Source: Dictyostelium discoideum (Eukaryota). Taken from it: DNA of 64,000 bases. The notes under the pieces were generated by a model. That model made no database searches. It saw only the letters and a list, made by a program, of their open reading frames with translations, and was not told where the DNA came from. This document shows positions 722-57,807 of the stretch, piece by piece. Positions within the stretch are counted from its first letter, which is position 1. Every line of letters begins with the position of its first letter. Position numbers and translations under genes: made by a program. Location of the stretch: the NCBI GenBank assembly GCA_000004695.1, contig CM000154.2, positions 2,656,001 through 2,720,000 on the forward strand, in the 5' to 3' direction.

Positions 722-807
<86 letters not shown>

Positions 808-1603: not shown

Positions 1604-1656
<53 letters not shown>

Positions 1657-1840: not shown

Positions 1841-1885
<45 letters not shown>

Positions 1886-3517: not shown

Positions 3518-3555
<38 letters not shown>

Positions 3556-4004: not shown

Positions 4005-4083
<79 letters not shown>

Positions 4084-16361: not shown

Positions 16362-17274
16362 ATGAAAAATGGTTTTTTATTTTTAACGATAATTTTATTA
16401 TTATCAATTTTCATTACATTTTCAAATTCTCAAAATTTGTCAAATTTGGAACAAAATTGTTTGACGAATTTGGGAAATAAAATTTCGAAATATAAAGATC
16501 CAAATTCATGGTGTTCCTCTTTTTCTTGTGCTCTTTCAGCTGATTCATCAAATTTATATATAGAAACATTAAAAATTGAAAACACAAATGGAGTCACAGC
16601 AGCTTTAAATTACACTGACTTTAGTTGTTTCTCTAATTTGACAAAATTGTAATTATTGACTTTTTATTTTAATTTTTATTATTTTTACTATATTACTAAT
16701 AAAATTCTTTAAATAGAGATATTACTCATTATACCTTAAACTATAGTTCCTTTTTTGGTGATATTTCAGAAAAAGGCTTGGCAGGTAAGTAACACTTTAA
16801 ATAATTAATTAAAATAAAAAAAGACAATATTAATAGATTTTTAAATAATTTAATTATAGTTTCAATTGTTTTAAATCAAACCTTTAATTTTGATTTCCCA
16901 AAATTGGTAAACTTTCCAACAACTTCATTGTATGTATTTTTAAAAAAATATATATATATACTCAATTTCATGATCAAACAAAATATTAATATTAATTAAT
17001 TCATAAAGAGAATTTGTTTTGGCATATACACCAGGTACTATTGGACAATTTAATGCAAGTTCTTTTGGAAATTTAAAATCATTAATTTTCACCACCAATC
17101 CTCTACTACCATCAATTCCAGCATCAATGACTCTTCCCACTTTATACAACGACTTAAATTCAAACCAACAGATTCAATTAGATAAATTTCGATTTGTGAC
17201 CAGACAAGTTCCAAATCTTAATTATTTTAACATTACTGAATTGTATGTACATTTGTTTATTCCAAAAATATAAG

Positions 17275-17332
<58 letters not shown>

Positions 17333-17699
17333 TATTATTAATAAATATTACTCTCTTTTAGGTATTTAGTATTAGAACCAACTATAACAGGGACTGGAGA
17401 TTTCAACTCTTTTACCAATGTCCAAATTTTTACTTTAATCGTGGATACAGACACACAGGTTATTGGTTTCCCCAGTATTTTTACATTAAGTAATAATATC
17501 ATACAAGCGTAGGTAATCATCTTTTAAATAATTTATTTCAATAATAAAATAAATAAAATAAAATATTCAAATAATTAACATTTTTTAATAAAATTTTAAA
17601 GTGAATTAAAAGCGAAATTTTCCCCTCCTGCTTCCATAATTGATATTACACCTTCTTCAAAACTTAGATCTTTGTGAGTTATTTGCAACAAACAAAAAA

Positions 17700-17738
<39 letters not shown>

Positions 17739-20700
17739 AATTTATCTTTTATTATTTTCTAACAATAAATTTTCAATAGGAGATATATACAAATTAATAC
17801 AGGAATTTCAAGTAGTTTTGCTTATCCACCTCCAAATGGTTTCCCTTTAATTCTTCCAACTTCAATTGAATTAATCTTTTTTCCAAATACTGGTTTTAAT
17901 TTACCTCAATTAAATATATTACCAAACTTAGGTTATTTAGATTTTTCAGCAAATTCAATTACATCATTACCTGCAAATATTGGCCCTTCCTTAAAATATC
18001 TGTAAGTTTAATAATTATTATATCTATTGTAAAAAAAAAAAAATTATTAAACAATCCTTTTATTTATTTATTTTTTTTTTTTTTTTTTTTTAATAGCGAA
18101 CTTTCAGAGAATAGTATAAGTGGAACAATACCGCCTTTGTTATTTTGCAATATGCTATTGGATGTTAATAATAATAATTTTAATGGTTATTTACCAGAGT
18201 GTTTTCAATGTAATGTATTAAATACTCTTATATTAATATGATGATTTTCTTTCTAACTTTTAATTGTTTTTACAAAAAATAATAATAATAATAATAAAAT
18301 AAAATAAAGGCTATTACAATTTCCAACCAATTTTAAGTGTATTTTTTTCTGCGAATCCAAATTTAATCGTTTCAGGACCATGTACTTTAAAACCAGTACC
18401 TAATTTTAGTTTGGATCCAGTTTTAAAAACATTTAGGTTATGGGGTTCAAATCTTGGGTATGCTTATCCTACTACACCATCCAACGTTTCATTTACATTA
18501 ATTTCAATACCAAATTCTGAATTTTTTGGTACTTACAATGATATAATGACAGCATCAGTAATAGAGTTTTCCTTTATGGGTTCAAGCTTTACATTACCTT
18601 TGACTCCAAACCCACCAAATATTTTCAATGTCCATTCGGATGGAGTTGCATCATTCTCATTTAATGGTCAGTATTTCACATATAACACAAGTGATGTAAC
18701 AATTACACTTAGTGGATATCCATGTCAAGTGACTTTTGCATCATTTCAAACCATAGCTTGTATGGGACCATCATTCCAAAATAGTTCTGAATTGGTTGTA
18801 AACTTTAAAATTGGAATTTATTCAACCCAAATTTCAGTGATTCTAGGTGCAGAAAGTAATAATGTTACAATGTGTACACAGAGTTGTAATCATGGTTATT
18901 GTAGTACTGTAGGTACTGTTGGCAAATGTATTTGCAATCCTGGATATGCAGGTAATGATTGTTCCGTTTCAAATCCATGCTCTTCAACTTGTTTGAATGG
19001 TGGAAATTGTGATTATTTTAAAGGTATATGTAATTGTACCTCAAGTTGGAGTGGTACTGATTGTGGAACACCATATATTGAATGTGCCAATGAATGTAAG
19101 AATGGTCAATGTAATTATCAAACTGGTATGTGTTTATGTAATATAGGTTGGGGAGGAACAATTTGTAATGAATTTTCACTTGATTGTCCAAAGAATTGTA
19201 GTTTTTCAAGTGGGGGTGGTGTTTGTAATCGTACAGTAGGCGAATGTAAATGTAATTCAAATTATCAATCAAATGATTGTAGTATCCCATATGTTGAATG
19301 TAATAGTAATTGTAATATTAATTCAAATGTTGGAAATAAATGTAATAATCAAACCGGTATTTGTATTTGTTCTACCGATTGGCAAGGTTTATCTTGTGAA
19401 TCACCAAGTCATTATATCTCATCAATTCAACCAACAAACACTGATGGTGGATTTGTTTTAATTTATGGATGGTTTGGTGGTAGTGGTTATCATAATAATC
19501 CTATGGTTACAATTGGTACACTTGAATGTAAAATAAATTCAATCAATGAATCTTTGATTAATTGTACAATTGGTAGTGGTTCTGGTACTAAATCAGTTTC
19601 AGTACAACAAAATGGTTATTCATATGTTGGAAAGGATATTTTCCATTATACTGATATTACTTATAAATGTCCAAATGATTGCTCTGGACATGGTACTTGT
19701 AACAAATTAATTGGTCAATGTAAATGTTTTAGTGGATGGGGTGGTTTTGATTGTAATGGTAAAAATATAGTTCAATCATCTTCAACAACAACAACTACTA
19801 CTACTACTACTACTACAACATCAGCATCAACAACAGCAACTACAACATCTGGCAATACAACACCAGAGCCAACACAAGAACCAATTGTAATTCCAGAGAC
19901 AGTTACAACAATTAATACAACTATTGGTTCAGCTTTAATTAATAATGAAAAAACTTTATATGAAATTAAAATTTCAAAAATTGTTGAATTAGATTTCAAT
20001 GGTGAATCAGTTAAAACTATAAATTTACAAGAGAAATGGAATGTTGAAATAATAGCAGAAAATAATACATACATTTTCAAACAAACATTAAATGGTACAA
20101 ATTGTACAGTAACCTATTCAATTGAAGAGGTTAAAACCACTAGAGATTATAATTTTGCAGGATTGGATTTAACATTGGATGCTGGTGGTATTAAAATCAC
20201 AGTTAAAATTGAAAATTATCAATATTTAAATTCATTAAATACATTACAACTTCAAATTGAATCATTAATTGGTTCAACAGCAAAAGACCAAAATGATGAT
20301 GAAGATAACGAATGTAATAAAGAGAATTTATCAGTAGATACAAATGAAATGGACAAAGATCAATTATTAAATTATATAACAATTTCAAAAGATCAAAAAA
20401 TATTATATGGTAGATTTATTAATAGAGTCGTCAGTGATACTAGACCAACATTTATTACAACATCAGTAGTTTCAAATAATGGAAATTCAGTTATACTTGG
20501 TTTAAATTTACCACATTGTATAAATTCATGTTTAATTGATCCTGGTATGTTATTTTTTTTTTTTTTTTCCAAATTCCCTAATTTACTAATTTTTTTTTTT
20601 TTTTTTTTTAAGATTTCTCTGTTTTAGTTTCTTCATCTTATAAAACCTGTGATAATTCTAAAGATTCAGGAAGACCAGCTTGGCTTTTACCAGTTGCTAT

Positions 20701-20833
20701 AGTTGTACCATGTGTTGTTGTGGCTTCAATAATTATAATCGGTGCTGTAATATATAGAAAAAATAGAATGGCAATTTTAGTTGCAAAGAATAAATATTCA
20801 TTTAGTCTTAGAAAAATGTCTAAAAAAAATTAA
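16362..20833 (+). CDS. Receptor-like type-I membrane protein: signal peptide, plant-type LRRs, multiple EGF/tenascin-like Cys repeats, Thr-rich stalk, one TM helix, short cytoplasmic tail. Ten exons: 16362..16648, 16717..16784, 16860..16929, 17009..17242, 17362..17508, 17602..17673, 17780..18001, 18097..18209, 18310..20544, 20613..20833
   Basis: Signal peptide MKNGFLFLTIILLLSIFITFSNS. LRR consensus appears, for example in LSENSISGTIPPLLFCNMLLDVNNNNFNGYLPECF and L.YLDFSANSITSLPANIGPSLKYL. The large exon carries about 8 C-x-C-x(2-5)-G-x(2)-C EGF-like units and a TTTTTTTTTTTTSASTTATTTSGNTTPEPT stalk. The last exon encodes the TM VAIVVPCVVVASIIIIGAVIY followed by RKNRMAILVAKNKYSFSLRKMSKKN and a stop. 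All small exons are phase-2 symmetric with GTAAGT/GTATGT/GTGAGT/GTAGGT donors, total 3669 nt giving 1222 aa. The last acceptor could instead be 20627. Confidence 0.65.
17275..17329. repeat. poly(dA) tract of about 55 nt inside an intron of the LRR-EGF gene
   Basis: Uninterrupted A run between donor GTATGT at 17243 and the acceptor at 17361. Confidence 0.9.
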
Positions 20834-21136: not shown

Positions 21137-22075
21137 ATGTCAAGATTATTTAATAATTTTCTATTGAAAACGAATAAAAATCAATTTATTCAATCATTTT
21201 CAACAAAATCTCAAATTAACAACAATATTTTCAATAATTTAATAAAAAATGAAAAAATATCATTACCCCCACCACCTTTTTTATCCTCGTCATCCCCATT
21301 ATCAATGAATAATATATTTAATAGAAATAATAAAAATTTATACACAACAAATAATTTTAATTATAATAAATTACAATTTACAACTCAATCACCCAATCCA
21401 ACCCCAACCCCAACCCCAACCCCAACTCCAACCCCAACCCCAAATAATAATGAAAATAATAATAATAAAAATAATAATAATAATAATTTTAAAGAAGAAC
21501 AAAAGAAAATATTACAAGAAAAGAATAAAGCAATTGGATTATACGTTTTAATTGCAATTATTGGTATTTTAGGATTATCATATGCAGCAGTACCATTGTA
21601 TAGAATATTTTGTAGAGCAACCGGATATGGTGGTACAACAAGAGATGCTGATGATTTTGATGTAATTAGAAAAAGAAATTTAGATAGAACTGTTTACCCA
21701 ATTAAAGTTACATTCTCAGCATCAACAGCCAATAAAATTCCATGGACATTCAAACCAACTCAAAGTACAATCGAATGTTTACCTGGTGAACCAGTTTTAT
21801 GTTTTTATAGAGCAACCAATAATACCGACACACCAATTATTGGTGTTGCAACTTATAACATCACTCCAATGAAAGCTGGAACCTATTTCACTAAAATTCA
21901 ATGTTTTTGTTTCGATGAACAACGTATCAATGCTCATGAAACAATTGATATGCCTGTATTATTTGTAATAGAACCCGAACTTTTAGATGATAAAAATATG
22001 AAAGGTGTTTCTGATATAACCTTATCTTATACTTTCTTTAAATCAAATGATCAAGGTGAATATGAAGAAATTTAA
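21137..22075 (+). CDS. cox11: Cytochrome c oxidase assembly protein COX11 (mitochondrial copper chaperone); single exon
   Basis: Conserved TM segment plus the soluble domain with the CFCF copper-binding motif (YFTKIQCFCFDEQ) and a YNITP/VTFSA core. The N-terminal presequence-like region includes a (PT)7 repeat encoded by (CCCCAA)-like hexamers. Confidence 0.85.
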   Translation: MSRLFNNFLLKTNKNQFIQSFSTKSQINNNIFNNLIKNEKISLPPPPFLSSSSPLSMNNIFNRNNKNLYTTNNFNYNKLQFTTQSPNPTPTPTPTPTPTPTPNNNENNNNKNNNNNNFKEEQKKILQEKNKAIGLYVLIAIIGILGLSYAAVPLYRIFCRATGYGGTTRDADDFDVIRKRNLDRTVYPIKVTFSASTANKIPWTFKPTQSTIECLPGEPVLCFYRATNNTDTPIIGVATYNITPMKAGTYFTKIQCFCFDEQRINAHETIDMPVLFVIEPELLDDKNMKGVSDITLSYTFFKSNDQGEYEEI

Positions 22076-35800: not shown

Positions 35801-37458
35801 TTGGTAAAGTAGATCATGGTATCACTCAAGAACAAAGAAAAAGAGTAAACATTGCAATTGAAATGGCTTCATTACCAGATATATTATTCCTTGATGAACC
35901 TACAACAGGTCTTACAAGTGTAGCTGCTGAATTAATTATGCAATTAATTAAAAGGGTAGCATTAGATGGTAGATCAGTGATTTGCACAATTCATCAACCA
36001 TCTGAAACTATATTTAAAAAGTTTGATAGTATTTTATTATTAACTCAAGGTGGTTTTGTTGCTTATTTTGGTGAACTTGGTCCAAATTGTAGAACTGTAC
36101 TCAACTATTGTTCAGATTTAGGTTTTAATTGTCCACAAGGTAAAAATCCTGCTGATTTCTTATTGGATTTCTCTGCTTCATTTAATTCCGCAAGTAGATT
36201 AGCTTCAAATGATAAAATGATTCCATCAATTAGATCAAGAATTAAAAATGTTGGTAATTATTGTTTTGATGGAAGTTCAAATTTAAATAATAAAAATGAA
36301 ATTAAACAACAACAAACAACAACTCAAAATGTAAACCTTGGTAATGAAGATAAACAACAACAACAACAAGAAGAAGCTAATGATGACAATAATATTCAAG
36401 AAGCAACTAGTAGTAATAGTAATAATAATAATAATAATGATATTATTGATAATTATCAATTTTCAAATTTAAATAGAGATACAATTGAAATTATTGATAG
36501 TGGTTTACCAATTGGTTTTATTAGTAAAACATTTAAAGAAAAGAATGCAACATCATTTTTATTTCAATTCTTTATGTTATTATTTAGATTCTTTGTTTGT
36601 GCAATTAGAAGAAGAAATTTAATTATGACAAGAATCATTAGATCCATATTGCTATCAGTTGTAACAGGTACATTATATTTACAGTTAAAGAATGATCAAG
36701 ATGGTGTAATGGATAGAATTAGTTTTATTTTCTTTACTTCAACATTTGCTTCAATTTCATGTCTTTCAAATATTCCAACAGTGTTTGAAGATCGTTTTCT
36801 ATTCTATCATGAATTGAACTCCAATACATACCGTCATCTAAGTTACATTTTAGCAATGATTTTAGCCGATTTACCATTCACCATAATGTACTCTTTATTG
36901 TTTAGTGCTCCTATTTATTGGATTGTTGGCCTTCAAAATGATGTTGATAAATTCTTGTTCTTCATATTCGTATATTATCTATATCTTCAAGTGTTGGTAT
37001 CATTTTCACAATTGTTAGGTATGGTTAGTCCAACATTAGCAACTGCCAATGAAATCACAGGTATCTCCTTCTCTGTGTTTAGTTTATTCGCTGGTTTTAT
37101 CATAAAGAAAGATGATATACCTTCCTATTATAAATGGTTAAATTATGTCTCGATCACTCGTTATTTGGTTGAACCATTAACTGTAAATGAAATGACTGGT
37201 AGTGTTTCATTTCATTGTGAACCTCATCAATTGATTCCAGTACCAATTCATTATACTCCTACCAATGCCACTGCCTCAGAACCAACTAAATTGGTCTTTA
37301 AATCATTTTGTCCAATCACTCAAGGTAATCAAGTACTCTATCAATTCGATATTAATGATACCGATAAATTTGAAGATACTTTTGTTTTAATTGGTTTATT
37401 TATTGGTTTTTTATTATTAATTTTAATATTTTCAAAAATTTTAAAATTTAAAAAATAA
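32872..37458 (+). CDS. Full-size ABC transporter, G subfamily (NBD-TMD-NBD-TMD, PDR-type); single exon, 1528 aa
   Basis: Two Walker A motifs ([11 protein letters not shown] and [12 protein letters not shown]). Two ABC signature/Walker B regions ([16 protein letters not shown] and [10 protein letters not shown]). Each NBD is followed by a 6-helix ABC2-type membrane domain. Confidence 0.9.
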
Positions 37459-44735: not shown

Positions 44736-45855
44736 ATGAATAATAATATTAAATATGTATTTTTAATAATTGTAACATTGGTATTTATTAATAATGTCTA
44801 TTCAGAATCAACAAAAATTGGAGTTTTAAATAAAGATGATTGTAAAAATTAATTTTTCACCACTTATAAAAGAAAATAAAAAAAATAAAATTGTGTTACG
44901 GAGTAGAAATTAACTTTTATTTTTTTTTTTTTTGTTGGTGAAATAAAAAAAATTAAAAAATAAAAACTATATAGATGATTATATAGATAAATTAGTTAAA
45001 GATTTATTCAAGGAAAACCCTTTTCCAATTTTAAATGTAGATAAAGATAAAACCTATTATGACTACTGTTCAAAACCATTATTTAAATGTAATAGTGAAA
45101 CTGGTCATTTATCAGGAATGTAAGAGTAATTAAATTATTATTATTATTATTATTATTAATATAGGATACTAATTTCATTCTTCAAATGGGAAAAATTAGG
45201 CATTTAACATATGACGCAGATTTGTGCAAGATCAAATCATTGAAAAATGAAATCTCAAAATACGATTTTACTATCATGGATAGTATTGAACTTTCATTAT
45301 TTCCATTTGGTTCTCCAAAAATTTTAAGCAAACTCAATGCTCGTACAGTGTAGGTATTTAATTTAATTTATTTTATTTTATTTTGTTTTGCTTTATTAAC
45401 TTTTATTAATAACCACCAATTTTTTTTTTTTATTTATAGGAAAATATCACGATGTCATATTGATTCGCTTTTAATTGAACCAAACCCAAATACAAGAGAT
45501 TTGTAAGTATAAATTCTTTAAATTTAGCGATTGATTAATTAATACTAATGAATTATTTTTTTTTTTTTTTTTTTATTTTTTTTTTTTTTTTTTTCTTTCA
45601 AATTATTCAGATTTGTTGACTCAAATGACAATGTTAAAGTAGTGATGAAAACTATGGGAATGATTGAAAATTTGTGAGTATAGTTAGCTTTTTGATATTA
45701 TGCTGAAAAAAAATTTCTTTATCTAACAAAAAAAAAAAAAAAAAATTATAGCACTCTCACAAGTTCATTTGTAAGAAATTCATCAAAAACCATTACATTT
45801 GAAGTAAATGAAGACGAAGATGAATTTAATTTTAAAAATTGGTATGTTCACTAAA

Positions 45856-45946
<91 letters not shown>

Positions 45947-46227
45947 TTTTCATTCTTTTTGCAATAATTATTAATATCCACCCATTTTCTTTTATTCTTT
46001 TTTTCAAAATAAATACCAACAATAGGGACGTTTATTCAACAAATGTTCCTCTTTTCAAATATTTTCATTTTGATACATTGTAAAGTATAATAAAACCTTT
46101 TTTTTTTTTTTATTTTTAAAAAAACTAACTTTTAATTTCTCTATAGAAAACTTACAATTTTATCAAATGAAGGTCTTGACAAAACTAATAAATTTGAAGA
46201 CTATACTGAGATTACAAATTTGTAAGT

Positions 46228-46260
<33 letters not shown>

Positions 46261-46739
46261 CTTTTCTTTTTTTTTTTTTTTTTTTTTCTTTTTTCTTCTA
46301 AACAAATTTTTAATAACTTCTCTCTCTTTTTTTTTTTAAAAGTTATTTGTATAAATATAAATATTTTGATTTTGATCCTATTCCATTCCCAAGTGAAATT
46401 TTTATAGATAATCAAGAAACCATGTTTTTTGGTACAACATTTAGAATTTCACCTCCAAATGATTATTTGGATATTTCAAAAGCATCTTCCTTACTTGGAT
46501 TGTAAGTATAAAAAAAAAAAAAAAGAAAAGAGAAAAAAAAAAAATTAAAATAAAAATTGTTTTTGTTGTATATTAATTTTTTTTTTTTTATTTTTTTTTC
46601 AGGTCATTCTCAAATGCAGAGGGTTTTTTTTATAACGATAACAACACACTCCAATTCCCATTTTCAAAATTCCCTGAAGAACTTGATCAATTGTAAGTAG
46701 TATTACATTTTAACCATTAAATAAATACAGTTATTAATA

Positions 46740-46770
<31 letters not shown>

Positions 46771-48435
46771 TAGTTTTTATAAAAATAACAACCAAAGTAC
46801 TCCACTTCCAGATATTCAAAAACTCTTTGAAAATACTAAAATTCGTTATTTGTAAGTATAAACATTTTTTTTTATTTTTTTTTTATTTTTTTTTTAATCT
46901 CCTTTATTTGGTTATTAATTTTTTTTTTTTCTTTTTAAAAAGAGTTTTACCAAATAATAAATTTAGTGGTAAGATTAGTCCAATTAACATTCCAAGTTTA
47001 ATAAATTTGTAAGTAAAAATTATTTTTATTATTATTGTTATTATTTTTTTTTTTAAAAAAATATAAAAATTTATTAATAATAATTTTTAATTTTAGAGAT
47101 TTATCAAATAATGAACTTGTAGGTAAATTAGGAGATTGGATTTGTGGTATTGATAGTTTAAATGTTCAACATAATATTCTTCAAGGTAATGTTCCAATTT
47201 GTAAAATATGTTATGGTAGTGGTCTTTCATTGATTGAGAATAATAATTATTTCGATAGTAGAGAATGCAACGAAACAATTCTAGAAAGTTTAGACATAAC
47301 TACTAAGGAATATAATATTTCAAAAACAAATGAAGATAAGGATGAAGTTTATTCTATGATCTATGAATATATAGTTAAAGGTGAAGGATTGGCTTATGGT
47401 GAACATAAATTTACAACAAACCTTAATGATTATAATTATACTTTAGGAGGTTGGATTCAAGTTGGGAATACCTATAAACTTAATACCACTAAAATGGTTG
47501 AATCTATTGATTTCTTTTTCAACACATCGTCCCCTTTTTCTGCTACATTTGCAACTAAACCAGATTCAAAACCAAGAATTAACTCAATTATAAAAACAAC
47601 TGATGAAGTCAAGGATCCAAAAACCGATAAATACACAATTGAAGGTATATTTTTCTCTTCATTAATATCTGATGTTTCAGTTTCATTGCTTGAAGAGGGT
47701 GATGACGAATACCTTTCTCATCCATGTAAAGTATCAGAGTCAACATTCTATTCAATCACTGCATCATGTCCAAATGAATTACTTTTAAATTTAATTCAAG
47801 TTAAAGTGGGTCAACTTGATACTGGTCGTGTTGAATTCAATTCATCTTCGTCCTATAGTAAAATGTGTAAATCGGAATGTAGTGATAAAGTAAAAGCAAA
47901 TGGTGGAGGTTGCAATTATGATGTTGGTCTTTGTAAATGTCATAAAAGTAATTGTAGATCGGTTACTGTCGAGGTCACTGGTCAATGTCTCAATGATGAT
48001 AATGGTGATGCCTATTGTAGTTGTAACGAAAGATGGGAGGGTACCCTTTGCGAGATCGGAACTTGTTTTGGTTATGATGGTTGTAATTCTCCAAAAGGTG
48101 AATGTGATAAAGCAACATCAATGTGTCATTGTTTAGATAAAAATTTTAATAATGATTATTGTAATGGTACTAGAACTATTCCAGATGGTAAAAATAACAA
48201 TAATAATAATAACAACAACGGTGGTGATGGAGAAAATGGTCCATCATATGCCGTTGGAGTTATCTTCCTTTTCGTCGTTATCATTGGTGTTGCTATCTTT
48301 ATCTATAAAAGATATATTGATGGTTCCTCAAAATCAACCACTTCAAATGGTGTCAAATTTAAAGTTTTAAGTTCAAAACAAGAAGATGATGAAGAAGATA
48401 ATTTATCAACAACAAGAAAAGGTTATGAAGAATAG
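44736..48435 (+). CDS. Second receptor-like membrane protein, paralogous to 16362..20833 (signal peptide, divergent repeats ending in plant-type LRRs, EGF-like Cys repeats, TM, cytoplasmic tail). Thirteen exons: 44736..44841, 44975..45119, 45200..45349, 45440..45502, 45611..45673, 45752..45841, 46026..46079, 46147..46221, 46343..46501, 46603..46692, 46774..46851, 46943..47008, 47097..48435
   Basis: Signal peptide MNNNIKYVFLIIVTLVFINNVYS. Eleven successive exons end ..TT|GTAAGT (phase 2) and restart with a single nt after AG. LRRs include LPNNKFSGKISPINIPSLINL and LSNNELVGKLGDWICGIDSLNVQHNILQGNVP. The final exon has EGF-like C.C..W.G..C units and the TM VGVIFLFVVIIGVAIFIY followed by a KRYIDGSS... 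tail. Total 2478 nt gives 825 aa, in frame throughout. The exon-3 acceptor is ambiguous (45200 chosen for frame; 45165 follows the (ATT)n tract but breaks the frame). Confidence 0.6.
45857..45950. repeat. (AAT)n of about 31 units inside an intron of the second LRR-EGF gene
   Basis: The run follows the GTATGT donor at 45842. It reads as poly-N in the ORF track but is intronic by frame analysis. Confidence 0.8.
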
Positions 48436-49142
48436 AAAAAATTAAAAAAAAAATAAAAAAAAAAAATATAAAAATTAAAAAAAAATAAAAATAAAAAAAA
48501 AAAAAAAAAAAAAAAATTTATTTATTACAAGCAAAATATTACATCCAAAAAACAATATATTTATTTTAAAAAAATTGTTAAAATAAGAAAGAATTATTCC
48601 TAACTTTTTTTTTTATTTTTAAAAACTTTTTCCAGAAATTTTAATATATAAAAAGATTCTATTCCTTTAAATAAATAGGAAATTGTATTTTTTTTTTTTT
48701 TTCCTTTTTCAAATTTTCTAACTCAATTCAGGAAAAAGTAACTTTCATCCTTTTCATCACTATTAGAGATTTATATTAATAAAATCCATTGGCGACAAAT
48801 TTTTTTTTTTTTTTTTCCATTTCTCAAATTTTTTTTTTTTTTTATATTTTATAAAATTATCGGTGTGTGTGTGTTTTGGATAAGTTTATCAATTTATTTA
48901 TATGTTTATTTTGTTTTAAATAAAAATAGCGCAAGTTTGAGAAAAAATTTTAATTGAACATAAAAAATTTTTATTTATTTTTTTTTTTATTTTTTTATTT
49001 TTTTTCAATTAATTTTTTTTAATTTCAAAAAAAAAAAAAAAATCTTTTTTTGATTTTTTTTTTTTTTTTTTTTTTACCTTTTTTTTTTCTCATTAATATT
49101 TGTATTTATAAATAACAAAAACAAAAATAACATAAAAAGAAA

Positions 49143-50968
49143 ATGTCCGACGATGAAGATATGATGTATGATGATGATGAATATTTTGATGATGATGAAG
49201 ATCAAGATCAAAATGATAGTGAATCAGAGGGTGTAGAAATTGAAAATCAATATTACAACTCAAAAGGTTTAATTGATGAATCAATTCCAGATGCAATTAA
49301 AAGTTATGAAAAAGTTGTTGATTTAGAAAATGGTGAAAAGGGTGAATGGTAATTATAAAAAATAAAAAAAAAAGAAATAAAAAAATAAAAATAAGAAAAT
49401 ATAAAAAATAAATAAAAAAAAAAAAAAAAATTAAATCAATAAACTTATAAAAATAAAAATCAATTAAAATATATAGGGGTTTCAAAGCATTGAAAAAGAT
49501 AACAAAATTATATTTCCGTATTGGAGATTTCGATAATATGTTGGAAAGTTTTAAAAAATTCCTTCCATACACTAAATCATCGGCAAGTAGTAATTATATT
49601 GAAAAGGGTATCAATTCAGTTTTAGATATGGTTTCTTCAAGTAATACAATTGAATTAGATATGATTCAAAAAGTTTTCGATTTAACTTTAAAATCATTAT
49701 TGGATACTAAAAATGAGGTATGTTTTTAATTTTTTTTTTTCTCACTCAAGTTTCTTTATTTTTTCTTAATATTGGGAGGAAATTAAATTTTTTTTTTTTT
49801 TTGTTGAAAAAAAAAATTAAAAAAAAAATAAAAATTTATATTTGATTTTCATACTAATAATTTTATTTTTACTCTTTTATATAAAAAATTTATTAATAAT
49901 AATATTAAAAACTTAATAATAATAATAAATAATTAAAAAAAAAAAAAAAAAAAAAAAAATTTTTTTTTAGAGAGTTTGGTTTAGAACAAATCTTAAATTA
50001 GCAAAATTATTATTTGAAAAAGCAGAATATGGTCGTTTAGCAAAGATTTTAAGAGATTTACATAAATCATGTGAATTAGAGGATGGTACTGATGATCAAA
50101 AGAAAGGTAGTCAATTGGTTGATATTTATGCTTTAGAGATTCAAATGTATACAGAAACCAAAAACAATAAGAAATTAAAAGATTTGTATAAAAAAGCACT
50201 TGAAATCAAGAGTGCCATTCCTCATCCACGTATTATGGGTATCATTAGAGAATGTGGTGGTAAAATGCACATGGCTGAAAAAGAATGGGAAAAAGCACAT
50301 ACAGACTTTTTTGAAGCTTTCAAAAATTATGATGAAGCTGGTAACTCTAGAAGAATTCAATGTCTTAAATATTTAGTTTTAGCATGTATGTTAATGCTTT
50401 CAACTATTAATCCATTTGATTCAACTGAAGCAAAACCGTATGTGTATTTTTAATTAATTAAAAAAAATATAATTTATTTATAATAATAATACTAATTATT
50501 TTTTTATTTTAATTTTTTTTTTTAAAAAAAAGATATAAAAATGATCCAGATATTTTAGCAATGACAAATTTAGTTATGGCTTATGAAAAGAATGATATTT
50601 ATGCATTTGAAAAGATCTTAAAAGATAATCGTAAAACTATTATGGATGATCCATTCATTAGAATGTACATTGAAGATTTATTAAGAAACATTAGAACTCA
50701 AGTCCTTTTGAAACTTTTGAAACCATACACTAGAATTAGAATTTCATTCATCTCTAAAGAATTGAATATTCCATCCAGTGATGTAGAGTCTCTTTTAGTT
50801 TCTTTGATCCTTGATAATAAGATTAGAGGTTCAATTGATCAAGTAAATCAACAGTTAGAACTTGATACTGCTAAATCTTCTGCTTATTGGAAATATACTT
50901 CAATTCATAAATGGGCAAATCAAATCGGTCAACTTAATGGTGGTATAAATAATAAATTAGTTTCTTAA
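49143..50968 (+). CDS. csn2: COP9 signalosome complex subunit 2 (PCI domain); exons 49143..49348, 49477..49717, 49971..50437, 50533..50968
   Basis: Near-colinear with human CSN2. [15 protein letters not shown]|[75 protein letters not shown] and [31 protein letters not shown] all match. Donors are GTAATT, GTATGT and GTATGT with phases 2, 0, 2. The product is 449 aa. Confidence 0.9.
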
Positions 50969-51147
50969 AATTAACAAAAAACAAAACAAAAAAAAAAAAA
51001 AAAAAAACCAATTATAATAATAATAATAATATCATAATCAAATTAAAATAAATAAATCACTGTTATAATAATAATATAAATTAATGTGTAATTTATTTAA
51101 ATATTTTATTTTGAAAGAAAAGGGGTTTTTAATTATTTCCTATTATT

Positions 51148-51519
51148 TTAAAAGGAAATTGATTTAATATAAAGATTTGGACGGGTGGTACCATTTAAGA
51201 TACAATAAAAAGTATGAGAGCTATGTGCGGCAATAGTTGATTGACCAGCTGGTAAGGTTAATTCATTTGAATGTTTTTCCATATTCCAAATTGATGAACT
51301 ATCTCTTAAAGTTAGAGTACGATCAGTTGCGATATGAATTGATTTAATTATTTTATTTGTATGATTTTCAATGGTAATTGAATATTGAGTAATTGTAATA
51401 CCATCTTGTTTCCATGATCCTATTACTTTAGTATCAAGTGAACAATCACGATTTGAAACACTTGCTGATGCAATTGCTGTTAAAACTAAAAGTGCACAAA
51501 TTATTTGAATTAATTTCAT
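51148..51519 (-). CDS. Small secreted protein with a CBM49-type (Dictyostelium cellulose-binding) carbohydrate-binding module; single exon, 123 aa
   Basis: Signal peptide MKLIQIICALLVLTAIASA. The mature region VIGSWKQDGITITQYSITIENHTNKIIKSIHIATDRTLTL...SIWNMEKHSNELTLPAGQS follows the SW..G..YQY.V.I.N...K.I.S..I......L....IWN pattern of CBM49. Confidence 0.5.
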   Translation of the reverse strand: MKLIQIICALLVLTAIASASVSNRDCSLDTKVIGSWKQDGITITQYSITIENHTNKIIKSIHIATDRTLTLRDSSSIWNMEKHSNELTLPAGQSTIAAHSSHTFYCILNGTTRPNLYIKSISF

Positions 51520-51713
51520 TTTAAAATATTTTAAATTGTTTATTTGAGTTGGTTTATTTAAATTGGTTTATTTAAATTGGTTTATTTTATTTTATTTTAT
51601 TTTGGAATGGATTTAAAAAAAAAAAATCAAAAATATTTATACCAAAATTTTTTCTTTTTTTTTTTTTTTAAATCCATTTTATTAATTATTAATATCTTTT
51701 ATTTGAAAATATA

Positions 51714-51830
51714 TTTTTTTAAGTTTTAATCTAATAAATCTAAAAAAAAAAAAAAAAATAAAAACCCCATTTCTATTATTTTATTTTTTTTAAGTTTTAA
51801 TCTAATAAATCTTAAAAAAAAAAAAAAATC
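51714..51830. repeat. Tandem duplication (two copies of about 45 nt, with one spacer) in the intergenic region
   Basis: tttttttaagttttaatctaataaatct(t)aaaaaaaaaaaaaa occurs at 51714 and again at 51786. Confidence 0.7.
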
Positions 51831-52082
51831 AAAAATATCATTAGCAATAAATACATATCATTTCAAATAACCATTAATTTTTTTTCTTTGTTCTTTTATA
51901 GAAAATTATTCTTTTAATATTTCTTTTTTTCAAATTTTAAATATAAAAAAAAATAAAAAAAATAAAAAAAACAACTTTTTTCAAATAAACAAAAAACTCC
52001 AATAATCCTTCATCTCAAATTAATTTTTATTAAAAACACAAACCTTTTCTATAAATTAAAATAAAATAAAAATAGCTTATTA

Positions 52083-52113
<31 letters not shown>

Positions 52114-52636
52114 CCCACACAATTGATGAATTTTTGGGAATTGTTCTAAAAATGTTTGAAGATTTTTCTTTTTAATAAAAACCATAAATTATTTGTTTAA
52201 AGTTTTTTTTTTTAAAGTTTGAAAAATTTTATTTAAAATTTGTCTTACCTAAACTTAAAAAAAGAATAGATCACAATCACTAATGTGTGCATGGATTAAT
52301 TCTTGAAATTTTTTTTTTTTTTTTTTTAAAAAGAATAATTTTGGTAGTTTTTTCATATTCTGATTTAAACAGCTAATTATTTCCTTTTTAGAATGAAATT
52401 TAAAAAATTTATTATCTAAATTAAAAGAAACAATCAAAATTTTTTTTTTTATTTTTTTATTTTTTTTTTGATTGGGTTAATTAAACTTTCCAGTCGAATA
52501 ATGTTTTTTTCAAAAGAGTTTTAATAGTATAAACATCAATGGGTATTTGAGGAAAAAATAATAAAAAAATCAATTGGACTATTTTAGTATTTAAAAACTA
52601 TTGAATAAGTTTTAATTTTTTTATTTATTTATTTAT

Positions 52637-53680
52637 TTATTTAAAAAATAAAATAATTAAAATAAAAATAATAATAAATAATTTTTTTGAGAATATTTGA
52701 TTAATATTAAAGTCATTTTTTGTATTATTAGTTGAAGTGTTAAAGATATAAATTTGCTCAACATGAGTTTCTTTAAATGTGTAAGTTGGATTATAGTTAT
52801 AAATTAGTGATTTAAATAAAACTTCTTCATCATTAAATTTATGATTAGATTTTCTTGTTTCATTTACAAAAAAGTTTGACATATATTGGCACGCTAAAAT
52901 GGCATTAAATGAATGATCAGTTGCATCTTTTGAATACCAACTATATGGTGATTTTTCAGGGTGCCAAATAATTGCATAAATTGGGTAATCTTTTGATTCA
53001 ATCAATGATATGAATTCATTTCCACTTTTATCGTTATTTGTTGCCAAAACATTAAAAAATTGATTTAATAATGAATTGTTATCAAATGTATTTGGCGAAA
53101 TTCCAAAATGATGATTATTCATTGTAATTGGATCATTTGCTAAAGAATTAATAATATTTGTTGGGCAGTTTTTCATAATTTTACTTTCTAATGCAATATT
53201 TGAAAAATTTAAGGGGATTGAATAATTTTCTGCATTAAAATCAGTTAAAACATCAAATGATTCAGCCTGTAAAGAAACAATTTCTTCCAAACCTAAACAT
53301 GTTCCCCACAAAGGAAAATAATCACCATTTATATTTACATCTAATACATAGTCCCAAATTAAAGTTAGAGTTTTAACATATTGAATTTCTGTTTTAAAAT
53401 CAACATCACCACCTGGTAATAGTATTCCATTTATTTGTTTAAAAATTGTTGTCAAAGATTCATCATCTTGGTTATAAAAAATAGGTACCACTCTTGCACC
53501 AGCAGATTCAACATATTTAACATATGATGCCATCAAATAATTATCACCATATTTAATATTAATTGAACTTGGAAATGGTTGAGTTAAAATTCCAATTACT
53601 GGAGTATTATTAATTGTATTAATTAATTTTAAATTTGAAATTAAATATAAATAAATAAACAATGAAAATAATTTTATCAT
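52637..53680 (-). CDS. Gamma-glutamyl hydrolase (peptidase C26, class-I glutamine amidotransferase fold); single exon, 347 aa
   Basis: Signal peptide, then the catalytic nucleophile motif WGTCLGLE and the catalytic His motif IIWHPEKS. GGH-typical YPIYAIIWHPEK is present. The C-terminus has an extra hydrophobic tail [16 protein letters not shown]. Confidence 0.8.
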   Translation of the reverse strand: MIKLFSLFIYLYLISNLKLINTINNTPVIGILTQPFPSSINIKYGDNYLMASYVKYVESAGARVVPIFYNQDDESLTTIFKQINGILLPGGDVDFKTEIQYVKTLTLIWDYVLDVNINGDYFPLWGTCLGLEEIVSLQAESFDVLTDFNAENYSIPLNFSNIALESKIMKNCPTNIINSLANDPITMNNHHFGISPNTFDNNSLLNQFFNVLATNNDKSGNEFISLIESKDYPIYAIIWHPEKSPYSWYSKDATDHSFNAILACQYMSNFFVNETRKSNHKFNDEEVLFKSLIYNYNPTYTFKETHVEQIYIFNTSTNNTKNDFNINQIFSKKLFIIIFILIILFFK

Positions 53681-54002: not shown

Positions 54003-56470
54003 TTATAAAAAATATAATTTATTAAATAAATTTTCATCAGATGGTATTTCTGGGATATTTTCAACTATTGGTTTATTTGAAACTGTATCATTTAATTTTT
54101 GAGGAGTTTGAAAATATTTACCAATAAAATAAGCTAAATTATGAGCATAATTACAAGGAGCAGGTGTTCTAACACTATTATTTATATTAAAGAATAAATT
54201 TGACATTTGAAAAGTAAAAAATTGAAAAGAGTCCACTGGTATATTGGCATCATTATGAATGATATGATAGTTTGTTGGTCTAACTGAAGATTTTGATTTT
54301 TTACTTGTATTTTGACAAACCAAATAAAAATCATACCAAAATGGATTGGTAATACCAGTGCTAACCATTGTACCATTGGGTGGATTGGTACTATCTTTTA
54401 AATTTAAAAATCTTGTGTTTGTATTCTTTTTAACAATAACATACATTAATAAAATCTTTTCATTGATTGAAGTAATTGCTTTTTTAATGAAATCAACTTC
54501 TTGCTCTTTCACTTTTTTTAACATACCATCAGCAACACCATCTCTATAAACAATGACCAGCTCTGGATATTTATTATTTGGATGAGATAAACGATAGGCA
54601 TTCATTGAATCTTTCATTGCGGTGAAAATGAAATCACTATCTAAAATCTCTTTTAAAAATGGTTGAATATTAATTTTATGATAAAATTGAGTATGACAAT
54701 TATTAGTTGAAGCAACAAATGCAGCCACTGAATAGGAGATCTCTGGATTATGAGTTACATCGATACCAATGACCATGGTATTCTCTGGTATATTTGAAAA
54801 TATTGTGGGATCAATCGACCATGGGAATTTACCCATTTTTGCAATGATTTGACTTGCAATTGGTTTTGAAATTAAATTTAAACGATCTTTAATTTTTGAA
54901 CTTTTAATACATTGAGTTATTACAGCTCTATTTCTTAGTAGTGATAAATTCTTTATTGATTTATAAATAAAAGAATGATCATTCTCTGGTAAAATAATAA
55001 TAAATAATTCAATACCACTATTTCTATCCAATTCTTGTGAAAAATAATTTAAATATTCATTTGAACTTGATTTATCTGGTACTTTTATAACAGAATTTGG
55101 TAATGGTAAATGACAATAATCTCTAGTCAATTGATCGATATTTCTTTGATTGCTTTCAATATCATTTTTAGTACCAATTAAAGACCAAACAACATTTGAT
55201 AGGTAATTTATATTTGAATTTGAAATTACTTGAGCTTTGTATTGTGAAGATTCAATTTTAATTGGTTCACCAATTGAAACGCCCCACTTTAATAATTGAC
55301 TTTGAATTTGTTTATGTAAACGTAGATCCGATTTAAATTGATTTAAAATTTCAAATCTATCTTTTGGATTTATTATTGTACGATTATCAATTTCATTACT
55401 TAAGTTCAATTCATCTTGTATGTTTAATAATTGAGGGATTCCAGTTTGAATACATAATTCTGGTACTAAAAAAATGGTTTCTTTTCTAAAATTTCTAGTT
55501 ATTATAACCTCTAATAATGGTTGTTCCTTATCTTTAATTGGTGGATTTAAACTATAATTTAATTCATAATATTGTGCAAATGTCATTGGTGTTGTAAATA
55601 TTGATGATGATTTTGGTGTAGTATTTGGTGTAGTATTTGGTGTAGTATTTGGTGAATCATTTTTTACTCCCGAATTTTGAACATTAGTTGTTGTTGGTGA
55701 AGGTGGAACACCAATTTTTATATTTAATTGATCATCAATTGTTTTTTCCCAAGCAATTCTATTTACTCTATAATGTCTATTATTATATTTTGTAAATATT
55801 ATTTTACCTTGAAGTTCATTTTCACATTTATTACGATCCATATTTAATTCTTTCATTCTTTCTAAAACACTTTTTGATCTAATAGCTTTTGATGTAATAT
55901 CCAATAGCATTGCAACACCGCTTTCAACTGTATGAACACTTGATATATAACCATTACAAATATCAACACCATACTCTGATATTGGATTCATTATTTTTGA
56001 ATAAAAATGTCTACCCAATTTTACAAATCCTAATGAAGCAAAAAACTAAAATTTAAAATTTAAAAAATTTTGTTAATAAATTAATTTTCTTAAAAAAAAA
56101 AAAAAACTGTATAGGAAAAAAAATACGAACCGATTTTGTTAAAATATTTAAAAAAGTTATAGATTCCATATCTCTTTTATTTGATTCATCTTTATGTTCA
56201 TTATTAATTAATACTTCTCTTTCAAATGATATTGAAATTTCATAACCTTTAATATTTGTTGAAAAATTTGAAAATGAACTTTGAGAATACATTGTAATAA
56301 AATCACCATCATATTTAAATGCTTCATTTTTAAAAATATCTGGATAATTATTAACTAATGTTTGAATGATTTCAACTCTTTGTGAATGTTTTGGATTTAC
56401 TCTTGGCTGTTGTTGAATAATATTTTAAAAAAAAATTTTAAAAAATCAATAAAAATTAATTAATTTTTTT

Positions 56471-56502
<32 letters not shown>

Positions 56503-56918
56503 TTTAAAAAAAAATATACATACTAATGATTTTATTTTGTATTTATAAATAGATTTTATATTTGGGTCAAACGATAATTTGAAATAATTGGTTAAAATTG
56601 GTAATTTTTCAGCTGGAATGCCCTCCAATGTTGCATTGGTTGGTTTTGGAAGATTAAAATATAACTCATCTTTTAATTTTGGTGGATCTCTTTTTTCAAT
56701 AATAATATCTTCATTTCTATCTTGATTTTCTTTTGTAATATCGATTATTCCAATTTCAGATGTATTTTTAATTGGTGGTAATAATGCTTTTTTTAAAGAT
56801 AATAAATTATTTTCGTTAGATTTTGATGTTTCTTTATTATTATTTATTGGTTTTGTTGTGTTCCCTGTTTTCATTGATGATAATGATGATGGTGATGTTG
56901 TTGCTGTTTTTGTTGCCG

Positions 56919-56952
<34 letters not shown>

Positions 56953-57456
56953 GGTAGTAGTATTTGGTATTGTTGGTGTTGTTGGTGTTGATGTTGGTGT
57001 TGATGTTGGTGTTGATGTTGATGTTGGTGTTGGTTTTGGTGTTATATATGGTGATAATTTTGCATTTATTGGAGTGTACACATATTGTGAAGGTTTAATT
57101 GTTGTAGATAGTATCGGTTGAGAAGGTGACCTTTGTGGTGAATTTAAGTTTGTCCTATTATTAGTTGGACTATTTGAATTATAATTCACAGATCTTGGAT
57201 CACTAAAATTACTTGATTGTTTGGCTCTACCTCTTGGAGAAATACCTCTTCCATCGGAAAATTGATTGGGACTATCATAAATTGGATTTTTATAATTACT
57301 ATTATACTGATTACCAAAATTATTTTTTTTATGAAATTTAGTATTTTTGTTATTATTATTAAAATTATTAAAATTATTATTATAATTATTATTATTAAAG
57401 TTATTATTTGAATTATTATTTGAGTTATAATTATTGTTATTATTATTATTATTTGA

Positions 57457-57528
<72 letters not shown>

Positions 57529-57807
57529 TGAATTATTTCCAAGGCCCAATACTTTTCCTTTTTGTGGTGATTTTTGGTTATTATTTGTATTAACTGGATT
57601 AATAGAGGTTTCTTCGTTTATATTTGGATTATCAACAATTAAATTCTTGAAGTTTATTCTATTTTTTGGAACCCAGGGAGTGAATGATGATATATTTGAA
57701 CCTTCAGAGGATGAGTCAAAGTCAACATTTGGAAATTCACAGTAATCATATTCTTCATCTTCATCTTGTTCATTGTCGTTTGAATTTCTATTATTTTTAT
57801 TTGACAT
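54003..57807 (-). CDS. Argonaute/Piwi-family protein (about 1200 aa); exons 57807..56524, 56406..56131, 56045..54003
   Basis: PIWI-domain motifs LVIVYRDGVADGMLKKV and PAPCNYAHNLAYFIGKY, with C-terminal ..LFNKLYFL. Upstream are PAZ/MID regions. Exon 1 is 428 aa of low complexity (poly-N, (T)15, TPTSTPTSTPT, GRGISPRGRAKQ) ending in the N-domain start LPILTNYFKLSFDPNIKSIYKYKIKSL at a GTATGT donor. Exon 2 (PRVNPKHSQRVEIIQTL...LNILTKS) ends at a non-canonical GTTCGT donor. Exon 3 starts FFASLGFVKLGRHFY. Total 3603 nt, in frame. Confidence 0.75.

Follow-up and report, generated by a model that had tools for sequence, protein, structure and literature searches.

The Gene and Its Exon Structure

The gene at 44736–48435 on the plus strand of the 64,000-nt window, that is, of the whole stretch of Dictyostelium discoideum DNA analyzed here, is DDB_G0295675 of D. 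discoideum AX4, encoding the protein XP_001733028.1 (= EDR41043.1, UniProt B0G165). An independently built exon model (Table 1) yields a protein of 825 aa, which is 100% identical to XP_001733028.1/B0G165 over its full length, and the gene span, 3700 nt, is the same in the annotation of DDB_G0295675. The reference annotation thus already contains the gene, with exactly this exon structure, and neither is new. In databases, its product is named "hypothetical protein / EGF-like domain-containing protein"; the identifier DDB_G0295675 had no match in the searchable text of papers, nor in the supplements of the relevant papers that were tried. A tRNA scan of the 64-kb window found none.

The original prediction of 13 exons and 12 introns proved right, as the exons sum to 2478 nt and form an open 825-aa frame identical to the annotated protein; the internal exons 2–12 measure 54–159 nt, as claimed. 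The assignment of the signal-peptide exon, starting at 44736, to this gene is supported; the exon is kept in 8 genomes, in the same phase. Of the two candidate acceptors of exon 3, the one at 45200 is right, while 45165 is rejected, as it creates an in-frame stop. An in-frame alternative for exon 2, the acceptor at 44987, was also rejected, as it would delete the conserved DYID motif. The GC content is 12% in introns vs. 28% in exons. The splicing model, as predicted here, is based on the annotation, frame logic, and cross-species conservation.

It had also been proposed that every junction must be used if the frame is to be recovered. This is true for intron removal, as each intron, if retained, brings an in-frame stop within 2–5 codons, but not for exon inclusion, as skipping is tolerated: exons 3–12 all have lengths that are multiples of three, with phase-2 introns on both sides, and the open reading frame survives skipping of any one of them except exon 7 (nine of ten).

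Table 1. Exons and predicted domains of DDB_G0295675, and its paralogue in the window. A slash in donor sites marks the exon end; B and A denote residues of DDB_G0295675 and of the paralogue, respectively.
Feature	Position	Strand	Details
Exon 1: start codon and signal peptide (aa 1–35)	44736..44841	+	Donor TT/GTAAAA, phase 1; kept in 8 genomes, same phase; hydrophobic N-terminus
Exon 2: N-terminal cap with two conserved Cys (C67, C74) and first strand	44975..45119	+	Donor AT/GTAAGA, phase 2
Exon 3: two degenerate LRR turns	45200..45349	+	Donor GT/GTAGGT, phase 2; predicted strands 110–116, 131–139
Exon 4: single degenerate LRR, 63 nt	45440..45502	+	Donor TT/GTAAGT, phase 2
Exon 5: single degenerate LRR, 63 nt	45611..45673	+	Donor TT/GTGAGT, phase 2
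Exon 6: single degenerate LRR with variable-length acidic loop, 90 nt	45752..45841	+	Donor TG/GTATGT, phase 2
Exon 7: short LRR turn, 54 nt	46026..46079	+	Donor TT/GTAAAG, phase 2
Exon 8: single LRR, 75 nt	46147..46221	+	Donor TT/GTAAGT, phase 2; preceding intron common to paralogue (B L224 = A L220)
Exon 9: two LRR turns, 159 nt, highly conserved motifs LYKYKYFDFDPIPFP and FFGTTFRI	46343..46501	+	
Exon 10: single LRR, 90 nt	46603..46692	+	Preceding intron common to paralogue (B L302 = A L293)
Exon 11: single LRR, 78 nt; start of canonical region	46774..46851	+	
Exon 12: canonical plant-type LRR VLPNNKFSGKISPINIPSLINL, 66 nt	46943..47008	+	
Exon 13, whole	47097..48435	+	
Exon 13, first part (aa 380–445): last two canonical LRRs, C-terminal cap P-x-C-K-x-C-Y, linker	47097..47292	+	Preceding intron common to paralogue (B L380 = A L367)
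Exon 13: two beta-sandwich domains (aa 446–634)	47293..47859	+	Predicted all-beta secondary structure; Ig-like structure matches
Exon 13: about three EGF-like modules (aa 635–741)	47860..48180	+	16 Cys invariant in 5 aligned species; align to Pfam-positive EGF repeats of paralogue
Exon 13: Asn/Gly-rich stalk (aa 742–763)	48181..48246	+	Poly-Asn run length differs among strains
Exon 13: single transmembrane helix (aa 764–789), then KRY	48247..48324	+	AlphaFold helix 765–787; dN/dS 0.29
Exon 13: short conserved cytoplasmic tail (aa 790–825) and stop codon	48325..48435	+	
Distant paralogue, ComC-type LRR/beta-sandwich/EGF/TIG/ComC_SSD/TM gene	16362..20833	+	10 exons, 1222 aa

Intron Phases and the One-Repeat-Per-Exon Layout

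Introns 2–12 are all in phase 2, and intron 1 is in phase 1. By rough arithmetic, assuming three equally likely phases, 11 of 12 introns would fall in one phase with a chance probability of about 1e-5. The original prediction described 11 identical TT/GTAAGT sites in phase 2; the phase holds for all eleven, but TT precedes the junction in only eight of them (AT, GT, or TG in the others). The donors are less uniform than stated as well, GTAAGT being found at only six introns, and GTAAAA, GTAAGA, GTAGGT, GTGAGT, GTATGT, and GTAAAG at one each.

The residues whose codons are split (84, 134, 155, 176, 206, 224, 249, 302, 332, 358, and 380) are all hydrophobic, and both AlphaFold models place every one of them within a predicted beta-strand. 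Each phase-2 intron would therefore cut the codon of a mid-strand hydrophobic residue, likely the second L of LxxLxLxxN, and nearly every LRR corresponds to one exon because the same strand codon is cut in each repeat. The frequent TT/GT context is simply a TTN codon, for Leu or Phe, interrupted between its second and third base and adjoining the Dictyostelium donor consensus GTAAGT.

Phase-2 introns with a single LRR per exon are known from Tetrahymena (PMC6564038) as well as from gonadotropin receptors and the ROCO genes of brown algae (PMC11378527). DDB_G0295675 resembles these genes in having a run of symmetric phase-2 one-repeat exons, with the hydrophobic junction codon spanning the neighbors. 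It differs in exon lengths, which are exactly 72 or 90 nt there and irregular, 54–159 nt, here; in showing no trace of recent clonal exon expansion, with a constant repeat number in 8 genomes; and in the protein context, which is extracellular, with EGF modules and a transmembrane helix. DDB_G0295675 is a clean amoebozoan case of the exon-per-LRR layout in an otherwise intron-poor genome. As a discovery it carries little weight, the gene being catalogued and the phase-2 layout being known in other eukaryotes, and amounts to a modest evolutionary footnote.

Protein Architecture

The reading of the protein as an LRR, EGF, and transmembrane protein was upheld. It has a type I single-pass layout, with hydrophobic residues 7–22 and a transmembrane segment at 764–789 followed by KRY, agreeing with AlphaFold helices 5–22 and 765–787. 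The predicted order is a signal peptide, a Cys cap, and a curved solenoid of some 14 LRRs (about 11 degenerate ones, then three canonical plant-type ones), which would be followed by a C-x-x-C cap, two beta-sandwiches, about three EGF-like modules, an Asn-rich stalk, the transmembrane helix, and a 36-residue tail.

No domain of the AX4 protein reaches its Pfam threshold. The claimed contrast between degenerate N-terminal and about three canonical C-terminal repeats is borne out, as only residues ~334–420 match LRR profiles. LRR_4/LRR_1 score 19.7 bits in AX4, less than the gathering score of 27, and are seen in four of five orthologues. In a PDB profile search, residues ~335–420 match the LRR of GSO1 with E 5e-26, and all the best sequence matches are plant LRR ectodomains (E 5e-26 to 1e-18). 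An exhaustive profile search retrieved thousands of LRR proteins, always matching at 334–420; among the best 150 of its matches, swamped by these generic LRR proteins, no second full-length family was seen.

Upstream, at residues ~75–330, two AlphaFold models have periodic strands, at only moderate confidence (mean pLDDT 56 and 62, built from five sequences). Top Foldseek matches of the N-terminal half are all LRR solenoids (Toll, BRI1, RP105, TLR4, LGR4), although weak ones, the best with E 6e-4 and 5e-3 and TM 0.2–0.4.

Downstream of the repeats, PF24143 (Beta-sand_ComC_2nd) matches residues 549–617, in the second beta-sandwich, with 16.9 bits and E 0.009, under the cut-off of 27, and is seen in one of five orthologues. 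Pfam EGF models had no match in the AX4 protein at E up to 1; the region contains 16 invariant cysteines with EGF-like spacing and aligns to the Pfam-positive EGF_2 repeats of the paralogue.

The last three repeats share the 24-residue plant motif xxNxLxGxIP with plant LRR receptor-like proteins and LRR receptor kinases (GSO1, FLS2, BRI1), and the combination of an LRR ectodomain, a transmembrane helix, and a short tail is that of plant receptor-like proteins. DDB_G0295675 differs from the plant LRR receptors in that it lacks a kinase, has mostly degenerate repeats, and carries beta-sandwich and EGF modules between the LRRs and the membrane. The plant similarity, spanning only ~85 residues, is thus a resemblance in repeat type and not orthology.

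The ComC-Type Paralogue

The gene at 16362–20833 had been described as having the same architecture. The two proteins are indeed homologous and collinear across the LRR array, the C-x-x-C cap, the two beta-sandwiches, and the EGF modules, but the second gene encodes additional domains, and only three intron positions coincide. The paralogy is real, but remote, at 25–27% identity: blastp gives 25% identity with E 1e-16, and hhalign, 99.3% probability, E 2.3e-20, and 27% identity over 499 aligned columns (B165–728 = A156–722). Both are type I membrane proteins with phase-2 introns in the same LRR codon, three of them at identical positions. The paralogue has a TIG domain, a ComC supersandwich domain (Pfam E 6e-63), a Ser/Thr-rich linker, and about four more EGF modules, all lacking in DDB_G0295675, where the supersandwich domain (PF22933) is absent at E up to 1 and TIG has no Pfam match. 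There are 9 introns in the paralogue vs. 12 in DDB_G0295675, and one of the former, at the equivalent of F278, falls exactly in the intron-less repeat inside exon 9 of the latter.

Origin of the Repeat Exons

The comparison with the paralogue suggests an intron-per-repeat ancestor with differential loss. The repeat array would have grown through ancient duplication of an exon-plus-intron unit, and introns would then have been lost differentially in DDB_G0295675 and in the ComC-type gene. This duplication origin is inferred and not shown, as exon lengths are non-uniform (54–159 nt) and no nucleotide similarity is left between repeat units. Recent tandem duplication of exon–intron units is rejected, the only matches between the units being poly-T low-complexity ones.

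The same two features, the heterogeneous exon lengths and the lack of residual nucleotide similarity among repeat units or their introns, could also be expected if phase-2 introns had been inserted independently at a recurring protosplice-like sequence of the repeat motif (..AAT TT/R..), and had not been inherited with duplicated repeats. Moreover, only three of eight introns in the paralogue-aligned region are common to both genes, and D. discoideum is intron-poor, with 17,300 introns genome-wide (PMC2483917), or about 1.3 per gene by our own estimate. Still, we regard independent insertion as fairly unlikely, as both paralogues have introns at the same repeat position and in the same phase, including sites unique to each of them; differential loss from an intron-per-repeat ancestor is a simpler account, and the same phase-2 layout elsewhere has been ascribed to exon duplication (PMC6564038, PMC11378527).

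Orthologues and Strain Comparison

In seven syntenic orthologues from related Dictyostelium genomes, all 12 junctions and phases are kept, and the number of exons, 13, is constant in all 8 genomes. Five syntenic orthologues are annotated; each has 13 exons in the same phases, and any difference in exon length is a multiple of three (e.g., 90–108 nt for exon 6), while intron lengths vary freely. All 12 GT–AG junctions are kept in three further strains. An apparent absence of the gene from three assemblies was caused by the word-indexed search, and a presence/absence polymorphism is rejected: at the loci, reached via gghB, each of these assemblies has the gene, annotated and undisrupted. Within this analysis, the protein turned up only in D. 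discoideum and in its nearest relatives.

Between AX4 and two further strains that carry the label D. discoideum, protein identity is 88.5% for DDB_G0295675 and 93–94% for the paralogue. Nucleotide identity is 91.6% across the gene, 85–90% in intergenic regions, and 96–98% in flanking genes; the other strains labelled "D. discoideum" are 2–4% diverged in flanking genes too. The protein evolves about twice as fast as its paralogue: in comparison with one and the same D. cf. discoideum strain, identity is 76% for the former and 89% for the latter. The cytoplasmic tail retains 97% identity to D. cf. discoideum, and 74–80% to more distant species.

Evolutionary Rate and Functional Interpretation

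Gene-wide dN/dS is 0.46–0.93 in 28 pairwise comparisons, compared to 0.11–0.34 for CBM49 and 0.13–0.31 for gghB, exact single-exon neighboring genes used as controls with the same method and at similar dS; absolute values are approximate, as the strong AT bias is not taken into account in the Nei–Gojobori and parsimony counts. The protein has diverged 3–8 times more than those of the neighboring genes at similar dS, which makes DDB_G0295675 a reasonable, if not compelling, candidate in screens for social-amoeba recognition molecules.

The original prediction placed rapid evolution in the N-terminal, ligand-facing part. The rates speak against this, dN/dS being 0.50–0.81 for residues 27–357 vs. 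0.51–0.78 for residues 358–741, with a flat sliding window. Neither does deviation from the consensus equal fast evolution, as no other part of the ectodomain is conserved as well as the irregular repeats of exons 9–11. Fast evolution spans the whole ectodomain and is not specific to the N-terminal repeats.

We observe clear differences among residue classes. The ratio is lowest in the transmembrane helix (Table 1), at framework L/N positions of the LRRs (0.35, p = 2e-6 vs. neutrality), and in the stalk (0.39), intermediate in the EGF modules (0.64), and 0.86–1.03 in the exposed LRR strand positions (0.86), the loops (0.98), and the beta-sandwiches (1.03 in beta-sandwich 1). Acceleration specific to the concave face was considered and rejected, as exposed strand positions reach only 0.86. 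No residue class or sliding window has dN/dS meaningfully above 1. With mean rates near neutral, relaxed constraint cannot be told apart from purifying and diversifying selection acting together.

Gene-wide ratios of about 0.6–0.8, divergence close to that of intergenic regions, and the lack of a Pfam domain above the threshold might be taken as signs of decay toward a pseudogene, the near-neutral rate reflecting loss of function. This is extremely improbable and already largely refuted by the constraint on framework LRR positions, the helix, and the stalk, by the 2.5-kb open reading frame and all 24 splice sites being intact in 8 genomes at dS up to 0.63, and by the invariance of all 16 EGF cysteines in five aligned species.

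Taken jointly, these data make it probable that this annotated gene encodes an exon-per-LRR type I surface receptor for binding or adhesion, with conserved structural residues and an otherwise weakly constrained ectodomain. Structural residues, EGF cysteines, the membrane anchor, and the tail would be under purifying selection, and the remaining ectodomain positions would drift at a near-neutral rate, weak constraint being the simplest reading.

Alternatively, the ectodomain could be a recognition surface (for kin, mate, prey, or pathogen) under diversifying selection, with positive sites masked by a gene-wide dN/dS below 1. The excess of protein divergence over the neighbors, the lower identity among strains than in the paralogue, and a gene nucleotide identity near the intergenic one and below that of flanking genes are all consistent with it, and selection on the concave face has been reported for the exon-per-LRR ROCO genes of brown algae (PMC11378527). 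However, no class or window is clearly above 1, exposed strands are no higher than loops or beta-sandwich 1, and the repeat number is fixed, with 13 exons in 8 of 8 genomes. Tgr allorecognition proteins (tgrB1/tgrC1) have an IPT/TIG ectodomain, an adjacent partner gene, and extreme polymorphism within the species, while DDB_G0295675 has neither the TIG domain nor the partner, its neighbors being an FNIP-repeat gene and a PCI-domain gene. Moreover, one study reports that conditionally expressed D. discoideum genes evolve fast by relaxed selection alone (PMC6650454). We thus consider diversifying selection unlikely, and retain weak constraint on a surface receptor as the preferred reading.

A still bolder version, in which DDB_G0295675 would serve the D. 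discoideum species complex as a rapidly diversifying receptor for recognition and its symmetric phase-2 LRR exons would act as cassettes, seems quite improbable. If it were true, the binding surface could change through alternative splicing or shuffling of exons, in line with a proposal for the brown-algal ROCO genes, because nine of the ten exons 3–12 can be skipped with the frame kept.

Gene model and splicing

The window containing DDB_G0295675 has a G+C content of ~22%; its poly-T and poly-A tracts are long, and its GT...AG introns are short. Independent reconstruction from the sequence reproduced the length of the originally predicted model of 13 exons and 2478 nt, with an open 825-aa frame. 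The translation is identical over its full length (100%) to the D. discoideum AX4 protein of this name (XP_001733028.1, EDR41043.1, UniProt B0G165), listed as "hypothetical protein" or "EGF-like domain-containing protein". Therefore, the gene and its exact exon structure are already present in the reference annotation, and the original prediction, while right, is a rediscovery. The identifier DDB_G0295675 is absent from all searchable paper text.

Table. Features in the window (window positions)
Feature	Position	Strand
RRM protein	522-5111	
Patatin-like lipase	14443-15921	
ComC-type paralogue	16362-20833	+
Cox11	21137-22075	
ABC-G transporter	32872-37458	+
FNIP-repeat protein, directly upstream of DDB_G0295675	41784-44087	+
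DDB_G0295675	44736-48435	+
(TAA)n microsatellite, intron 6	45852-45946	
Canonical LRRs	46943-47292	
Stalk poly-Asn run (aa 746-753)	48193-48216	
Gamma-glutamyl hydrolase B (gghB)	52637-53680	-
Argonaute (PAZ + Piwi)	54003-57807	-

Intron 1 is in phase 1, and the eleven predicted phase-2 introns are indeed introns 2–12. The uniform sequence context ascribed to them is found in part: TT precedes the donor at eight of the eleven junctions (AT, GT, and TG at the others), and GTAAGT is the donor of six of the 12 introns, the remaining donors being six different hexamers, once each. Two acceptors had been considered for exon 3; 45200 keeps the frame, and 45165 was rejected, as a stop is reached after 13 codons. 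Retention of any of the 12 introns leads to a stop within 2–5 codons, whereas exons 3–12 all have lengths divisible by three and phase-2 introns on both sides, so that the ORF survives skipping of each of them but exon 7. Hence the argument that the frame needs every junction holds for intron removal, not for obligatory inclusion of every exon.

Introns contain 12% G+C, compared to 28% in exons, and have a median length of 90 nt, typical of D. discoideum in both length and A+T richness (median 103 nt, 89% A+T; PMC2483917). Intron 6 is the longest in AX4 (184 nt) due to a (TAA)n microsatellite of ~32 copies, and spans 65–168 nt in seven other genomes.

Conservation in orthologues

Syntenic orthologues, flanked in every genome by an FNIP-repeat gene on one side and a PCI-domain gene on the other, were found in D. 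cf. discoideum (two assemblies), strains labelled D. discoideum (two), D. citrinum (two), and D. firmibasis. Splicing was reconstructed exactly for five annotated proteins, and the AX4 junctions were projected onto three other strains. The five proteins are encoded by 13 exons each with one common phase series; their exon lengths differ by multiples of three only, while intron lengths vary freely (56–313 nt). In the three projected strains GT–AG is intact at 12 of 12 sites and the ORFs are complete. The signal-peptide exon with its phase-1 junction is retained in all eight genomes, with no hint of membership in another gene. Pseudogenization is contradicted by these intact ORFs and splice sites, as well as by the constraint on some site classes (see below).

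Loss of the gene in three genomes, missing from the first protein search, was rejected, as the fetched loci contained it. The word-indexed search missed three annotated syntenic orthologues (~80–89% identical), and the C-terminal half, searched as a profile, gave no match at all, failing to recover even the query; hence absence from the protein search is weak evidence.

Protein anatomy and one repeat per exon

Pfam yields sub-threshold matches only, LRR_4 at 354–391 and the second ComC beta-sandwich at 549–617. A profile built from the orthologues finds plant LRR receptor ectodomains in PDB (E as low as 5e-26), always at ~335–420, and matches in an exhaustive profile search are confined likewise. 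Thus canonical repeats are limited to the last three, as had been proposed; they are of the plant xxNxLxGxIP type, and the 60 listed PDB matches are essentially all plant LRR proteins, most of them receptor kinases or receptor-like proteins. In both paralogues the N-terminal cap carries a C-x4/6-C motif, seen in sequence only, that may resemble the plant LRRNT cap.

AlphaFold models of the whole protein and of residues 27–445, of moderate confidence (pLDDT 56 and 62), both predict a beta-strand at all eleven phase-2 junction residues (84, 134, 155, 176, 206, 224, 249, 302, 332, 358, 380) and contain three more strands without an intron. For the N-terminal half, the top Foldseek matches are all LRR solenoids (Toll, BRI1, RP105, TLR4, LGR4), and for residues ~446–634 they are tandem Ig-like sandwiches; E-values are weak throughout. 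Residues 635–741 contain 16 cysteines with EGF-module spacing, invariant in five aligned species, followed by an Asn-rich stalk, a helix (765–787) then KRY, and a 36-residue tail, the layout of a type I membrane protein. The stalk poly-Asn run comprises eight residues in AX4 and ~13–20 in three other strains. Taken together, DDB_G0295675 is a genuine gene of many exons, conserved among these genomes, that encodes a type I LRR/beta-sandwich/EGF-like membrane protein with one LRR per exon, and we infer a cell-surface binding or adhesion receptor.

The junction codons of introns 2–12 (M, V, L, F, W, L, F, L, F, L, L) each correspond to the second L of LxxLxLxxN and encode a hydrophobic residue. 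A TTN (Leu/Phe) codon split after its second base beside the donor consensus yields TT|GTAAGT, making the recurrent TT|GT a by-product of the one-repeat-per-exon, phase-2 layout. This layout is already known in other eukaryotes: Tetrahymena LRR genes (PMC6564038), brown-algal ROCO genes (PMC11378527), and gonadotropin receptors (as cited in PMC11378527). Unlike in these cases, exon lengths here are irregular. Exon number is constant in all eight genomes, and no nucleotide similarity was found among the repeat units.

Relation to the ComC-type paralogue

The paralogue (10 exons, 1222 aa) aligns end-to-end with annotated orthologues and contains a ComC supersandwich domain (6e-63), a TIG domain, and several EGF_2 repeats. 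Similarity of the two proteins is seen both in blastp (25% identity, E 1e-16) and in hhalign (99.3% probability over B165–728 = A156–722, B denoting DDB_G0295675 residues and A those of the paralogue), and they are homologous and collinear over the LRR array, cap, beta-sandwiches, and EGF modules. The DDB_G0295675 protein is thus related to ComC-type proteins; the predicted sameness of architecture applies to this core, but the TIG domain, supersandwich, and approximately four EGF modules are missing from DDB_G0295675.

Three phase-2 introns are common to both genes (B224/A220, B302/A293, B380/A367). One paralogue-specific intron falls at the equivalent of B F278, within the two-repeat exon 9, and five introns of DDB_G0295675 within the aligned region have no counterpart in the paralogue. 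We read this pattern as differential loss in the two genes from an ancestor that would have had an intron per repeat; independent gain of phase-2 introns at a recurring motif is a possible alternative.

Identity of the AX4 paralogue to its counterparts in two other strains that bear the label D. discoideum is only 93–94%. In one allele (P0163, 1182 aa), 38 residues are missing, equivalent to about one EGF module, owing either to copy-number variation or to an artefact of annotation. The exact 1222-aa AX4 model has no entry in the protein collection searched.

Rate of evolution

In exact codon alignments of eight orthologues, dN/dS is 0.46–0.93 in all 28 pairs, compared to 0.11–0.34 for the neighbouring CBM49 gene and 0.13–0.31 for gghB, a few kb away, by the same method; dS of these controls is similar and dN 3–8 times lower. 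When AX4 is compared with a second strain, nucleotide identity is 91.6% in this gene, 85–90% in flanking intergenic regions, and 96–98% in flanking genes. Protein identity to the D. cf. discoideum and D. citrinum orthologues is 76 and 62%, versus 89 and 82% for the paralogue.

The protein thus evolves fast, as predicted, but the acceleration is not specific to the N-terminal, supposedly ligand-facing part: dN/dS is 0.50–0.81 for residues 27–357 and 0.51–0.78 for residues 358–741, sliding windows give 0.5–1.2 throughout the ectodomain, and its best conserved part is exons 9–11, which carry very un-LRR-like motifs.

Table. dN/dS by position class (parsimony counts on the eight-taxon tree)
Class	dN/dS
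LRR framework L/N	0.35 (p = 2e-6 against neutrality)
Exposed strand positions	0.86
Other LRR positions	0.98
Beta-sandwich 1	1.03
Beta-sandwich 2	0.88
EGF modules	0.64
Stalk	0.39
TM helix	0.29
Cytoplasmic tail	0.54

Parsimony counts are approximate and ignore AT bias, so that the rate argument rests on the comparison with control genes. The values suggest constraint on structural residues and membrane-proximal parts, the remaining ectodomain probably being weakly constrained. Some sites could be under diversifying selection, but no class clearly exceeds 1, beta-sandwich 1 being the highest, and positive evidence for such selection was not found here.

Strain differences

Assemblies ACTFIR and ACTFIW, labelled D. 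discoideum, differ from AX4 by 2–4% in neighbouring genes (dS ~0.06–0.08). This seems high for within-species variation, and hence these strains may be cryptic relatives. Comparison of 48500–53680 with GCA_054883475.1 reveals an 8-nt coordinate drift between DDB_G0295675 and gghB, suggesting that two AX4-type assemblies differ slightly in length.
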